A stretch of 64,000 nucleotides of DNA from a virus (lineage: Duplodnaviria > Caudoviricetes), in IMG/VR virus record IMGVR_UViG_3300026549_000040, positions 32,001-96,000 of that record. One strand, given 5' to 3'. Shown piece by piece: positions 9,512-49,049 of this stretch. A program made the translations under genes and the position numbers. The notes beneath the pieces were generated by a model that ran no database searches, was not told where the DNA came from, and saw nothing but the letters and a program-made list of their open reading frames with translations. Within the stretch, counting starts at the first letter, position 1. Every line of letters starts with the position of its first letter.

Positions 9512-9590
9512 AATTATACAATCAGGAGTTGATTGGACTATAAGCAATACTTACCCTCTAGTGTATGGGGCAATATACACTAAATAATTT

Positions 9591-9664
9591 TGCGGGATCG
9601 TCAAGTGGCAAGACAACGGGCTCATTACCCGTTACCGTAGGTTCGAATCCTACTCCCGCATCCA
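9591..9664 (+). tRNA. tRNA-Met(CAT), initiator-like
   Basis: cloverleaf, GGG/CCC anticodon stem, loop CTCATTA, CCA end. Confidence 0.85.
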
Positions 9665-9668
9665 ATAT

Positions 9669-9750
9669 GGGGATGCGATGGGCGTTCGACTCGGCTTAAA
9701 CCCAAAGTGAACTGTCGAGGACATCGGTTCGAATCCGATCATCTCCACCA
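9669..9750 (+). ncRNA. minimal tmRNA-like RNA (tRNA-like domain only)
   Basis: GGGGATG/CATCTCC-ACCA with G3:U70, no D stem, TTCGAC...GGAC flanks, canonical T arm; only 28 nt between the flanks. Confidence 0.7.
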
Positions 9751-9764
9751 TATTAATAAATTAA

Positions 9765-9851
9765 GCGGCTGTGTCGGAACTGGCAGACGACTCGGACTTA
9801 AAATCCGATGCTCCTGTGAGCGTGTGGGTTCAAATCCCACCAGCCGCACCA
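9765..9851 (+). tRNA. tRNA-Leu(TAA)
   Basis: cloverleaf with long variable arm, CCA end. Confidence 0.93.
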
Positions 9852-9858
9852 AAGGAAC

Positions 9859-9911
9859 AGACACAAACAGCAAATATGATGTTCTTAATAGGGTAAAAAG
9901 ATATTGTGTCT
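9859..9911 (+). ncRNA. ACAGCAA stem RNA, copy 1
   Basis: AGACACAA/TTGTGTCT stem with ACAGCAA at its inner 5' side. Confidence 0.55.
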
Positions 9912-9938
9912 AGGTAAGTTTTATAGGAGGAAGTAAGC

Positions 9939-11465
9939 ATGGGATTTGTTGAAAACTTAAAAGTAGAACAGAATAACGATAACGAAATGAATCTAACGGA
10001 AAACTTAGCAGTTGCATATAAAACAACTGGTGAGTATTTGTTAGATTTTAATTTTAAGGTAACGAATTTAAGACATTCAAGCTATGAAGATGTAGTTACT
10101 AACTTTAAGAAAGTTTACTACAGTGATAGCACAACAGCATTGAAGTATTTATTCTATGTTGGTGACATTAGATATGGTTTAGGTGAAAGACATATCTTCA
10201 AATCTTGTTTTAAGTGGCTTGCAGAAACTCATGGAGATAAAGTAAAAGGTCTTCTGTTTCTTATTCCAGAATATTCAAGATGGGATGTTCTTGTATCATT
10301 AATTAATTGTGATAATAAGAAGATACAGAAAGAAGTTACTAATATCATCCGTATCCAATTAAATAAAGATAAATATGGCATGCTTAATAACAGATCTATT
10401 TCATTACTTTCTAAGTGGCTGCCATCAGAAAATGCTTCTTCTAAAGAAACAAAAGAGTTAGCAAAGATTGTAAGAACCAATCTTAAAATGACTCCTAAGA
10501 AGTATAGAAAAACTTTGAGTACATTAAGAGCTTATCTTGATGTGGTAGAAACTAAGATGAGTGCAAAAGATTGGGATAAGATAGATTATAGTTCTGTTCC
10601 ATCAATTGCTAATATAAACTACTCAAATGCTTTTATGAAGCATGACCCACAGAGAAGAACACAATACTTAACTGATCTTAAAGAAGGTAAAACTAAGATT
10701 AATGCAGGTGTACTTCAGCCACATCAGATTGTATATAGATATGTTAATGGTCATGATGGGTGGTATAATGATGTTTCAATCAAGTATGATGAAACTTTAG
10801 AAGAACTATGGAAATCATTGCCAGATGTTTGTACAGAATCTACTTTAGTAGTTAGAGATGGTTCTGGTTCAATGTATACTTCTGTTAGTGGAAGAATAAG
10901 AGCTGTGGATGTTGCAACAGCACTTGCTATTTACTGTGCAGAACATACAATGGGTGAATTTAACGATAAGTTTATTACTTTTTCTTCTCGTCCTAAGCTT
11001 GTAGATTTATCTTATTGTGAATCTTTAGCAGATAAGATTGATAAAGCTTATCTTGAAACAGAAATGTCAAATACAAATATTTTTAAAACTATGATGTTGG
11101 TTTTAGATACTGCTGTTAAATATAAGATGAAACAGGAAGAACTTCCACGTAATATTCTTATTATTTCAGATATGCAGTTTGATGGTTCAAGATTTAATCT
11201 ATCAAAATCTTTATTCGATGAAATAAAGGACGAATTTAAGAAGTATGGATATAAAATGCCAAGAATTTGTTTCTGGAATTTAGATCCATATGATTCAGAA
11301 ACTATTCCTCTTAAGCAAAATGATAATGGTTTAATCCTATGTAGTGGATTTTCAATAAATAATTTGAATATGTTTATGAGTGGAGAGATTGATCCTCTTA
11401 AAGTCTTATTAGACATATTAAATTCAAAACGGTATGATGCTGTTGAAGCAGCAATAGATAGATAA
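9939..11465 (+). CDS. DUF2828 / TROVE(Ro60)-like protein with C-terminal vWA domain
   Basis: LTEN, DIRYGLGER, KWLPSE, IDYSSVPS; MIDAS RDGSGSM...T...ISDMQFD; AGGAGG SD. Confidence 0.85.
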   Translation: MGFVENLKVEQNNDNEMNLTENLAVAYKTTGEYLLDFNFKVTNLRHSSYEDVVTNFKKVYYSDSTTALKYLFYVGDIRYGLGERHIFKSCFKWLAETHGDKVKGLLFLIPEYSRWDVLVSLINCDNKKIQKEVTNIIRIQLNKDKYGMLNNRSISLLSKWLPSENASSKETKELAKIVRTNLKMTPKKYRKTLSTLRAYLDVVETKMSAKDWDKIDYSSVPSIANINYSNAFMKHDPQRRTQYLTDLKEGKTKINAGVLQPHQIVYRYVNGHDGWYNDVSIKYDETLEELWKSLPDVCTESTLVVRDGSGSMYTSVSGRIRAVDVATALAIYCAEHTMGEFNDKFITFSSRPKLVDLSYCESLADKIDKAYLETEMSNTNIFKTMMLVLDTAVKYKMKQEELPRNILIISDMQFDGSRFNLSKSLFDEIKDEFKKYGYKMPRICFWNLDPYDSETIPLKQNDNGLILCSGFSINNLNMFMSGEIDPLKVLLDILNSKRYDAVEAAIDR

Positions 11466-11469
11466 AATT

Positions 11470-11534
11470 TAGACACGAACAGCAATTTGCAAGATCAGTT
11501 TTATTAGCTTCAGAAATAATAAAAATTGTGTCTA
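11470..11534 (+). ncRNA. ACAGCAA stem RNA, copy 2
   Basis: TAGACACGA/TTGTGTCTA stem plus ACAGCAA. Confidence 0.55.
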
Positions 11535-11555
11535 GTTCATACTTACCTCCTTTTT

Positions 11556-11637
11556 TAGGCCCTAACAGCAATCAATATGTTTTATAAAAGCTTGTTACTA
11601 TGTTTATTTAGAGAAAATACTTTTATTATAGGGCCTA
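11556..11637 (+). ncRNA. ACAGCAA stem RNA, copy 3
   Basis: TAGGCCCTA/TAGGGCCTA stem (compensatory changes) plus ACAGCAA. Confidence 0.55.
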
Positions 11638-11645
11638 GCCTATAT

Positions 11646-11721
11646 GACCCATTAGCTCAGTCGGCAGAGCACCTGACTTTTAATCAGGGTGTCCGGAGTT
11701 CGAATCTCCGATGGGCCACCA
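11646..11721 (+). tRNA. tRNA-Lys(TTT)
   Basis: cloverleaf, CCA end; A2:C71 mismatch. Confidence 0.92.
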
Positions 11722-14443: not shown

Positions 14444-14497
14444 AGATCTCTTATTCGTTATTTCTTTTCCTCCTTTCATGTAGTGAATAAGGGATCT
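14444..14497 (+). ncRNA. 17-bp hairpin displaying an anti-Shine-Dalgarno loop
   Basis: stem with G:U pairs on + strand; loop TTTCTTTTCCTCCTTTCATG. Confidence 0.5.
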
Positions 14498-14975: not shown

Positions 14976-15003
14976 TATAAAAAATGATAAGGAGGTAAGT
15001 AAG

Positions 15004-15249
15004 ATGATAACTAGAGAAATGTTCAACCTCGTAAATGATTGTTATAACGAAGTAATGGATGATCTCAATGATACATTTGAACAACCAGAACCTATAATGC
15101 CTCACAGTTCAGAAATCATTAGAGATTATAAATCAATAGCTGCAGAAGAATGGGAAGAACTCACAGTTGAAGAAGCAGATAAAATATTTGATAAGATCTA
15201 TAGAATGATAGATGAATCAAGACTTTTAAATGCTATTGCTTGGTCATAA
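15004..15249 (+). CDS. hypothetical early protein
   Basis: AAGGAGGT SD. Confidence 0.7.
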   Translation: MITREMFNLVNDCYNEVMDDLNDTFEQPEPIMPHSSEIIRDYKSIAAEEWEELTVEEADKIFDKIYRMIDESRLLNAIAWS

Positions 15250-15264
15250 TAAGGAGGTAAGATT

Positions 15265-31727: not shown

Positions 31728-32618
31728 TTGGATAATACTTACACAGACATCTCGAAAGATCTTCAGATAATAGAAGATGTATTTATAGAAACAGATGAAG
31801 ATTATGAAAAACTATATAGACAGATAGACTTAACTGAGGAAGAATTTACAGATATAAAAGCGGGTAGATTGGAACCAGATAAAATTCAGTTAGAAAATAT
31901 TTACAACTTTGCTTATAATCATAATCTATATCTAAATGAAATATCGTGGCTGGAATGTCAGGATGAATATGAGACTGGTGATATAACAGTACATAGTCAT
32001 GGAGCACATACAGCAATAGTTGGAGATATTATATTAAAGAAAGCTCCAGGAAGTAGCAATGACTTTGGTGATGGTTTTTATTTAGGTGAAGATATATCAC
32101 AAGCCGGTATGTGGGTTGCAAATGATGTTAACTCTTCTTTATATATATTTACATTAGACAAAAGTGATCTTATTGAAGCAAGATTTAATGTAGATGTTGA
32201 TTGGATGTTAGCAGTTGCACTATGTAGAAATAAGTTAGATGACTATTTAGATAATCCAAGATTACAATCTTTAAAAGAGAAAATAGATAACTGTGATTAT
32301 GTATATGCACCAATAGCAGACAATAATTTGTTTGAAGTAATTGATTCATTCCTAAATGGAGAGATTACAGATTTACAATGTTTATATGCTATTTCAGCAT
32401 CACATTTAGGATATCAAATAGTTATTAAAAATGAAAAAGCTCTAAGTCGTATTGATATGAAAAAACATCTATATCTTTGTTCTGTAGAAAAAAGTTTATT
32501 CAATAGAGAATCTGATATTGAAAGTAATACATCAATGCATAAGTCGCAAATTGCACAGGTAAGATATAAAGAGGTTGGTAAGTATATAAATGAATTACTT
32601 GAAGAGGGAATTGAATGA
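31728..32618 (+). CDS. DUF3990-family protein with N-terminal extension
   Basis: HG...NDFGDGFYLG...QA..W, APIAD. Confidence 0.7.
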   Translation: MDNTYTDISKDLQIIEDVFIETDEDYEKLYRQIDLTEEEFTDIKAGRLEPDKIQLENIYNFAYNHNLYLNEISWLECQDEYETGDITVHSHGAHTAIVGDIILKKAPGSSNDFGDGFYLGEDISQAGMWVANDVNSSLYIFTLDKSDLIEARFNVDVDWMLAVALCRNKLDDYLDNPRLQSLKEKIDNCDYVYAPIADNNLFEVIDSFLNGEITDLQCLYAISASHLGYQIVIKNEKALSRIDMKKHLYLCSVEKSLFNRESDIESNTSMHKSQIAQVRYKEVGKYINELLEEGIE

Positions 32619-48500: not shown

Positions 48501-48524
48501 AGTTATTAAAAAGGAGGTAAGGAC

Positions 48525-49049
48525 ATGGAATTCAAGAGTGGAATGAAAGTTCAATCAGAAGTGATATTGATTGAATCTATCACATACGGTTCAGAACCAA
48601 AGCATTACTACGACGATGGCATTAGACATATCTATAAATTTATGGATAAAGACGATAATGTGTTTACTTGGTTCACCACAAAAGTATTAGGATTTGACTT
48701 TGTAACTTCACGGGGAAATGTTGACTTTGAATTCATTAATGAAGGTGATAAAATGGAAATTCGTGGTACTATTAAGTCAATAGGTGAATATAAAGGCGAA
48801 CCCCAGATCATTATAACCAGAGTTAAAGTAACTAATGTTAATAAGTCCAATCTTAGTGAAGATAAAATAAACGAATTAAAGCGTATTGTTCAGTTAGCAA
48901 AATATGATAGAATGCCTGGAGTATACAAGGTTATTAATGTTTCTTATAGAGAATATAAAGAAAAGTATAAAGAGTATGAAGTAGTACATGGTAGTTTTAA
49001 GAGAACTGATCATGGTAGCTATGTTGATATTATTATTTATAGGGGGTGA
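48525..49049 (+). CDS. OB-fold-like early protein
   Basis: IRGTIK...EYKGEPQ..ITRVK. Confidence 0.55.
   Translation: MEFKSGMKVQSEVILIESITYGSEPKHYYDDGIRHIYKFMDKDDNVFTWFTTKVLGFDFVTSRGNVDFEFINEGDKMEIRGTIKSIGEYKGEPQIIITRVKVTNVNKSNLSEDKINELKRIVQLAKYDRMPGVYKVINVSYREYKEKYKEYEVVHGSFKRTDHGSYVDIIIYRG

Follow-up and report, generated by a model that had tools for sequence, protein, structure and literature searches.

The window analysed here is a 64,000-nt stretch (positions 32,001 to 96,000) of an IMG/VR phage record that is 144.9 kb long (31% G+C), and all coordinates below are those of the window unless a lineage is named. On its + strand lies a gene for a 508-aa protein (9939..11465) with the Pfam domains DUF2828 and DUF7788. 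It is bracketed by three small RNAs that share one layout, in which ACAGCAA comes after a closing stem, and which we call handle RNAs. RNA1 (9858..9913, + strand) has an 8-bp closing stem with ACAGCAA at 9867-9873, and belongs to the 5' leader of the gene, whose Shine-Dalgarno (SD) region follows 8 nt downstream. RNA2 (11470..11535, + strand; ACAGCAA at 11479-11485) and RNA3 (11556..11638, + strand; ACAGCAA at 11565-11571) lie 3' of the gene, and both have 10-bp closing stems. That of RNA2 includes two G-U pairs, and as these function on the + strand only, they place the flanking RNAs on that strand. The first tRNA after RNA3, tRNA-Lys(UUU) (11646..11721, + strand), begins 7 nt downstream, and its processing would define the 3' end of RNA3.

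The DUF2828 protein is predicted to fold as a Ro60/TROVE ring with a vWA domain. Its AlphaFold (AF2) model has a pLDDT of 82, and the top Foldseek matches in the PDB were TROVE/Ro60 structures (9kop, 9l5y, 1yvr, 2nvo; E 1e-8 to 3e-5), with Ro60 of Thermus phage phiLo among the best. The TROVE ring and vWA domain are present at the level of the predicted fold only: Pfam assigned DUF2828 and DUF7788 but not TROVE to the 508 aa, and a profile search of PDB sequences gave no match. A hit to ribosomal protein S21 in that search (E 0.29) was taken as noise. In known systems YrlA-type RNAs pair with Ro60/Rsr (Chen et al. 2014, PMC4201824), and phage phiLo has Ro60 together with Yrl1/Yrl2 (PMC12135203). 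The locus resembles these in having a predicted ring-plus-vWA fold beside small RNAs with a terminal stem and a 5'-side motif, in a tRNA-rich setting. It differs in that the protein is DUF2828/DUF7788 and the RNA motif is a stem plus ACAGCAA, as opposed to the GGUCCGA/CGAA of Y RNAs. Rfam, at E up to 1, showed no family over RNA1-3 or the tract between RNA2 and RNA3; its YrlA model scored 22-28 bits (cut-off 69) over tRNAs only, and RNA1-3 had no match. The DUF2828-linked stem-ACAGCAA RNAs are absent from every RNA catalogue. A scan of GenBank phages for close relatives matched the tRNAs alone, and a single-protein scan of IMG/VR for close relatives returned nothing.

RNA2 and RNA3 are joined by a short linker (11536..11555, + strand) that reads UCAUACUU then ACCUCCUUU, with CCUCC at 11546-11550. 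The linker directly follows the RNA2 helix, whose 3' arm ends at 11535. On its other side, the 5' arm of RNA3 begins at 11555/11556, with the final one or two U's of the linker taken into the RNA3 stem. There is no G in its 20 nt. An earlier note had described a 19-mer here, at 11538-11556 on the + strand, as a single-stranded anti-SD segment. This sequence is present at exactly that position, and its reverse complement is, as claimed, an SD, 5 nt and ATG AAC TAG (Met-Asn-stop). Folding also agrees with the note, in that the predicted probability of CCUCC being unpaired is 0.93 in the window; it is 0.89-0.99 in five of six close lineages. With a further 350 nt of coding sequence from upstream in the fold, CCUCC was predicted to pair with purine runs in some lineages, and these runs differ in place and sequence between lineages. 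Folds of the close lineages thus gave no conserved intramolecular partner for the linker within the transcript.

DUF2828 homologues are very numerous. In a survey of 160 DUF2828 loci from IMG/VR and metagenomes, most had stem-ACAGCAA elements just 3' of the gene, and stems of at least 8 bp were found at 50% of ACAGCAA anchors compared to 18% of random anchors. In 11 lineages (DUF2828 protein 51-96% identical), the invariant core ACCUCCUUU lies between RNA2 and RNA3. Nine of the 11 also retain UCAUACUU, anti-AUG included, and the linker consensus over all of them is ACCUCCUUUCU. The linker of L002 (96% protein identity) is identical to that of the window. L003, L163, L164, L165/166, L167, L361, L362 and L363 (57-67%) keep UCAUACUU plus ACCUCCUUU(C), and the block directly follows the CUAG that closes RNA2; in L164 and L361 the spacer part of the linker has a 4-nt U insertion. 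L364 (55%) and L046 (51%) have lost the CAU and retain ACCUCCUUUCU. In the more distant L008, L011 (twice) and L012, CCUCC is found in the RNA2 loop, just 5' of its 3' arm.

This conservation exceeds that of the remaining RNA. In the alignment of the lineages, the mean pairwise identity of the linker is 0.87, compared to 0.44 for the interior of RNA2 and 0.47 for that of RNA3. The latter values are the level of unrelated AT-rich sequence, and the two interiors cannot be aligned. Strain-level variants in DNA runs occurred in the loops of RNA1 and RNA3, and none in the linker. Judged from these comparisons, the linker is under purifying selection. The earlier note had named lack of conservation as a ground for rejecting its proposal; within the clade of the window that objection fails, the linker being kept in 11 lineages.

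Counting the motif by itself would not have led to this conclusion. On the + strand of the whole genome CCTCC occurs 16 times, compared to about 10 expected; 14 of these are in + strand ORFs and two are non-coding. A lone non-coding CCTCC is by itself within chance, and it is the conservation in 11 lineages that makes the linker non-random. Nor is CCTCC a hallmark of the RNA class: it occurs nine times among about 211 unique ACAGCAA elements, compared to 2-6 times for words of the same composition and seven times for GGAGG, and we found no class-wide enrichment of CCUCC in these elements. Both of these counts would suit a neutral spacer or a chance resemblance to an anti-SD. Near-invariance over 18 nt, next to RNA interiors and synonymous sites that are saturated, makes such neutrality scarcely credible. 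Most of the roughly 200 other ACAGCAA RNAs have no linker tract. As the tract is missing from most ACAGCAA/DUF2828 loci, it is, on the sequences surveyed, a clade-specific addition and not a general property of the particle or of the RNA class. Two wider searches were set aside. CCTCCTT is frequent in non-coding + strand DNA (25, compared to at most 11 for its permutations), a count confounded by real minus-strand ribosome-binding sites (RBSs). In an IMG/VR scan with a 17-mer, nearly all matches were true minus-strand gene starts in unrelated phages, and the match in L321 was a chance one in coding sequence.

Which strand is selected? Read on the minus strand, the linker has a textbook SD, 5-nt spacing and ATG, present in nine of the 11 lineages, and the same 18-mer opens real genes in many genomes; the conserved element could thus be a real translation start, with an antisense transcript carrying a mini-ORF or a start-stop. 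The reading frame that follows is not conserved, however: its length is 2, 2, 2, 2, 6, 7, 7, 17 or 21 codons, the peptides are unrelated, and no conserved ORF was found behind the ATG in the 11 lineages. L364 and L046 have no ATG at all, yet retain the CCUCC core. Every neighbouring gene and RNA is on the + strand, and promoter-like sites on the minus strand do not exceed their frequency in shuffled sequence. We therefore consider a minus-strand start very improbable, and the statement in the earlier note that the ATG is not a gene start holds. A decayed minus-strand gene is ruled out, as the core is invariant while the frame changes and two lineages have CCUCC without the ATG. A relic would drift and a working start would keep its ORF, and neither fits. 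The unconserved frame, the all-plus neighbourhood and the background level of minus-strand promoters together indicate that the selected feature is the sequence of a + strand RNA. A promoter or terminator role of the linker region gave no signal above shuffles.

Metatranscriptome data give a weak hint that the linker region is transcribed. It is present in two metatranscriptome runs from one cattle-gut sample. One contig covers 9532-11692 without a difference and has a word depth of 37.5, compared to 10.5 for the upstream genes (a 3-4-fold excess in the metatranscriptome contigs), while in a DNA run the word depth is flat (13-17); these data are contigs and carry no strand, ends or level of RNA. 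Over the wider segment 9532-14237, the contigs of these two runs that cover the DUF2828 gene and the tRNA/RNA island exceed those on the flanking protein genes 3-8-fold in word depth, and here too a DNA run is flat.

The leader of the DUF2828 gene and the tRNA island also vary between relatives. In L003, L165, L167 and L164 a small hairpin of the UGGC-N5-GCCA type lies about 25 nt before the DUF2828 start, and in most relatives it separates the 3' arm of RNA1 from the SD of the Ro60-like gene. In place of this hairpin the window has GGUAAGU, a complement of ACUUACC in the linker. In L002 (4700-4900) the tRNA-Lys is broken directly after the 5' strand of its anticodon stem by foreign sequence that opens a new ORF. 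Upstream, at L002:2218-2900, the tRNA-Met/mini-tmRNA region has given way to an ORF with a weak HNH match, and tRNA-Leu also looks replaced in its 5' half. From their sequences, these interruptions of tRNA genes may be intron or homing-endonuclease insertions.

What could a + strand RNA of this sequence pair with? UCAUACUU plus the core block is the exact complement of the 18-mer AAAGGAGGUAAGUAUGAA. The earlier note listed matches to RBSs of the phage itself, and these exist. A start region at 14989..15006 (+ strand) matches over 13 nt (14989-15001; duplex -21.5 kcal/mol) and serves the ORF at 15004, the first after the tRNA array. A second at 48508..48527 (+ strand) matches over 14 nt (48508-48521; -22.5 kcal/mol) and serves the ORF at 48525. 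The shorter matches are also there, with the 10-mer AGGAGGTAAG at 15252 and 28249. These matches are generic, however, because the linker complements a consensus strong RBS, and complementarity to such a consensus gives them trivially. About 40 start sites of the genome form duplexes of -15 to -26 kcal/mol with the linker, and nearly all of the 25 best + strand duplex sites (-17 to -26 kcal/mol) lie just 5' of a start codon. No exact match in the window exceeds 14 nt, and many strong RBSs share the best energies. Duplex scans of two complete genomes, those of the window phage and L003, revealed no unique, near-perfect or conserved target. The two genomes have eight orthologous pairs among their top 25 targets, which is expected anyway from conserved strong SDs. 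PHROG annotation of the best-matching target genes was uninformative, and lent no support to the label of early genes in the earlier note.

A search for targets in hosts had the same outcome. The 18-mer is an ordinary start region in very diverse bacteria. It occurs in at least 119 bacterial genomes, where 77 of 81 occurrences are followed by an ORF of at least 30 aa, and in about 38 phage contigs. The only recurrent family behind it is a 99-aa protein, presumably a ribosome hibernation factor, in closely related Bacteroidaceae genomes. We rejected this family as a target lead, its recurrence reflecting the redundancy of these genomes.

We propose tentatively, with a probability of about 0.4, that the linker is a sense-strand, single-stranded anti-SD/anti-start-region seed that pairs with RBSs. 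It would be displayed either as the 3' tail of RNA2 or as a bridge within an RNA2-RNA3 tandem. Its 18-19 conserved bases would complement an archetypal strong start, made up of an extended SD, a 5-nt spacer (9 in one subclade) and AUG. The linker would then pair with the SD/start region of mRNAs with strong Firmicute-type RBSs, including those of the phage itself, and block 30S binding, like the C-rich seeds of Gram-positive small RNAs. Since the seed is joined to RNAs that are probable ligands of the Ro60-like protein, a bound mRNA might be passed to the Ro60-like particle. We infer a stable linker RNA, binding of the protein to the flanking stems, the pairing itself and an effect on translation. 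The earlier note proposed much the same, an antisense guide presented between two protein-binding stems. Its description of the setting is borne out, with the tract lying between two handle RNAs beside a protein of predicted Ro60-like fold. The guide itself fares less evenly: it is conserved, predicted to be unpaired and complementary to strong RBSs, but has no specific target in two genomes.

That the duplex scans gave no specific mRNA target would also suit a tract that binds protein or serves processing, with no SD pairing at all: a pyrimidine-rich strand threaded through the Ro60-like ring, a ligand of S1 or of another host protein, or a spacer or cleavage site to separate RNA2 from RNA3. 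The central cavity of Ro60 takes single-stranded 3' extensions beside helices (PDB 1yvp, 2i91), and a G-free tract of 20 nt directly after a helix has this form. RNA1 and RNA3, however, both have no such tail, and the tract is missing from most DUF2828 loci, so it is no general binding determinant. Furthermore, its 11-nt identity to the 3' end of 16S rRNA (see below) and its correctly spaced anti-AUG would both have to be coincidence. We regard this reading as quite unlikely.

Another potential target is close by. The linker could pair in cis with the start region of the DUF2828 mRNA, 1.6 kb upstream in the same transcript, and the protein, bound to RNA1 and RNA2, would join both sites and shut off its own translation. 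The arrangement suits such autoregulation, as RNA1 abuts the SD of the gene, and RNA2 and the linker follow its stop in all close lineages. The phiLo Ro60 dimerises on Yrl RNA (PMC12135203). Duplexes of the linker with the translation initiation region (TIR) of its own gene have energies of -15.7 to -19.7 kcal/mol at six loci (five lineages, the window and L002 counting as one), several own TIRs share GGAGG..AGUAUG with the complement of the linker, and in the L003 genome the own TIR comes 9th. In the genome of the window phage, however, it ranks only about 36th, and the complementarity is no better than that to any start containing GGAGG. L164 combines an A-rich TIR spacer with the U4 insertion in its linker, but L361 has the insertion without a matching TIR. 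The TIRs of orthologues are also similar by descent, which reduces the effective sample to about 1-2. Cis autoregulation therefore appears improbable.

The motif is displayed elsewhere in the RNA island of this clade. In the window, a hairpin at 14444..14497 (+ strand; 18 bp, 18-nt loop), between tRNA-Gln and tRNA-Ser, has CCUCCUUUC in its loop, with CCTCC at 14469-14473. Its predicted fold is stable (-22.5 kcal/mol, z = -5.7), and its CCTCC is the only other non-coding one on the + strand of the 145-kb genome. In L003, L165, L167 and L361, a hairpin is followed by ACCUCCUUUCU directly 5' of a mini-tmRNA-like element. This repeated sense-strand display speaks for the motif itself as the functional unit.

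In these four relatives, tRNA-Met and the mini-tmRNA-like gene flank a conserved element of about 100 nt (L003:2030-2131; L167:920-1011; L361:~980-1074; L165:~640-720), which the window does not have. The stem of its terminal hairpin covaries (GGUGGA/UCCACC, GGUGGG/CCCACC, GGCGG/CCGCC), and the ACCUCCUUUCU after this hairpin abuts the GGGGAUG 5' end of the tRNA-like domain. Going by this arrangement, cleavage at the tRNA-like 5' end would yield a hairpin with a 16S-like 3' tail. In L163 (2964-2972), CCCUCCUUU fills the spacer from the 3' arm of RNA3 to tRNA-Lys, as a second anti-SD-like tail. Handle RNAs of sister lineages have features of another kind. Within the first 260 nt after the DUF2828 stop, L005, L007, L009, L010, L004, L075, L058 and L088 have many handle RNAs with short anticodon-loop-like hairpins, with 7-nt loops such as CUUUUAA, CUGUUAA and CUUGAAA, and L010 has an entire tRNA-like insert. 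Going by such look-alikes, sites in host RNAs seem to be copied, in the same sense, by the ACAGCAA RNA class.

ACCUCCUUUCU, the clade consensus, matches base for base the 11 nt that end the bacterial 16S tail (anti-SD) in its Firmicute form (...CACCUCCUUUCU), and GGATCACCTCCTTTCT is found at the 3' end of matches to RF00177 (SSU rRNA) in a Clostridium genome and in multiple copies in a Bacillaceae genome. Like the 16S tail, the linker is predicted to be single-stranded after a helix. Unlike it, the linker lies outside any rRNA, it is preceded by UUACUU and not by GGAUC, and in the window it ends in UUUUU. The window's own copy matches the 16S 11-mer at 9 of 11 positions, in a comparison made with Firmicute 16S rRNA.

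The linker may thus be a mimic of the 16S tail, a decoy or bait whose same-sense copy, displayed next to the Ro60-like particle, competes for a factor that recognises the tail; pairing with mRNA would then be beside the point. This reading, which the earlier note does not raise, is just as simple as that of an antisense guide. Candidates for the factor would include 3' exonucleases, proteins of the ribosome or of hibernation, and ribonucleases of defence or toxin type that strip off the anti-SD. Toxins that excise exactly this piece are documented: MazF-mt11, which cuts C|ACCU, takes the terminal 11 nt off 16S rRNA (PMC12274833), and RelE1 releases its anti-SD region (PMC12620021). Both act on the segment that the linker copies and are the type of factor that a decoy would encounter. 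They are mycobacterial, however, and the linker has no MazF-mt11 CACCU site, as U and not C precedes its ACCU. The consensus equals the 16S 3' end in eight of the 11 lineages, whereas the tail of the window ends in UUUUU. The mimic gains from the four relatives with the 11-mer 5' of the mini-tmRNA, where cleavage would make it a 3' terminus, and from L163, with CCCUCCUUU right before tRNA-Lys, but the copies displayed in loops are not 3'-terminal. Copies of anticodon loops such as CUUUUAA in other handle RNAs fit same-sense mimicry, and a mimic would not clash with the SD-dependent genes of the phage itself. On the other hand, the conserved UCAUACUU extension with its anti-AUG is left unexplained, and no 16S-tail decoy RNA has been described in the literature searched. 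Taken together, a tail mimic is the main rival of a pairing seed, possible but rather doubtful.

A broader form of this idea concerns the particle as a whole, which might display copies of the anti-SD tail as decoys or sensors for defence ribonucleases that cut the 16S tail. The copies displayed would be the RNA2-RNA3 linker, one released by processing at the 5' end of the mini-tmRNA, and one in the hairpin loop, and by analogy the anticodon-loop copies of the sister phages would be a parallel. We think this unlikely; if true, it would be an RNA-based counter-defence that protects the ribosome.

How, then, does the evidence bear on an anti-SD seed? Purifying selection on the linker counts for it, as does the CAU at SD-to-AUG distance, which lies in a 5' extension that is not 16S-like. 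Even with the 4-nt insertion of L164 and L361 the SD-to-AUG distance (9 nt, compared to the 5-nt spacer) is still within the working range. Further support comes from the best duplex sites, nearly all just 5' of start codons, from the predicted unpaired CCUCC with no conserved partner and from the + strand placement of the flanking RNAs by their G-U pairs; the higher metatranscriptome word depth over 9532-11692 is a weak hint in the same direction. Display that is independent of position (linker, RNA2 loops, hairpin loop) also fits a pairing seed. Against a seed stand the lack of a unique target in two genomes and the expectation that a generic anti-SD RNA would strike the strongly SD-dependent genes of the phage itself. 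It also counts against a seed that ACCUCCUUUCU, the most widely kept part, is the 16S terminal 11-mer, which includes bases beyond those that most phage SDs pair with. Finally, the sister RNAs with same-sense anticodon-loop copies suggest mimicry, and not antisense, as the logic of the class.

SD pairing is the standard mode of Gram-positive small RNAs, and the C-rich or anti-SD seeds of RsaE/RoxS and RNAIII occlude RBSs. The linker resembles these seeds in being accessible, conserved and pyrimidine-rich, of CCUCC type, and located in a linker or hairpin loop. It differs in that its complement spans the spacer and the AUG, so that no single target stands out, and in being phage-encoded, in a tRNA/RNA island and joined to the putative partner RNAs of a Ro60-like protein. 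Phage T4 encodes RegB, a protein endoribonuclease that inactivates the SDs (GGAG) of some of the phage's own early mRNAs. RegB is thus a precedent for a phage aiming at strong SDs; unlike RegB, the recognising element here is an RNA, and no nuclease has been identified. While anti-SD seeds and Ro60/Y-RNA particles are each already known, we found no Y RNA with an anti-SD tract described in the literature searched, nor any Ro-type partner RNA to which an anti-SD or 16S-tail tract is joined.

Ro60/Y-RNA particles are widespread, and their functions in bacteria and phages are poorly understood. A conserved copy of the ribosome's tail on handle RNAs, predicted to be exposed, provides a concrete handle on the role of the particle. 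If the linker is a seed, mRNA start regions would be brought to the particle, for RNA-guided control of translation or for decay, and an RNA2-linker-RNA3 unit with an internal linker would be expected. If it is a mimic, RNAs of the particle would imitate the tail of the ribosome as a decoy, and a stable + strand RNA ending ...CCUCCUUU(CU)-3' would be expected. The two can thus be separated on about 170 nt of RNA. Either, if true, would be a first for Ro-type particles as well as for the tRNA/RNA islands of phages.
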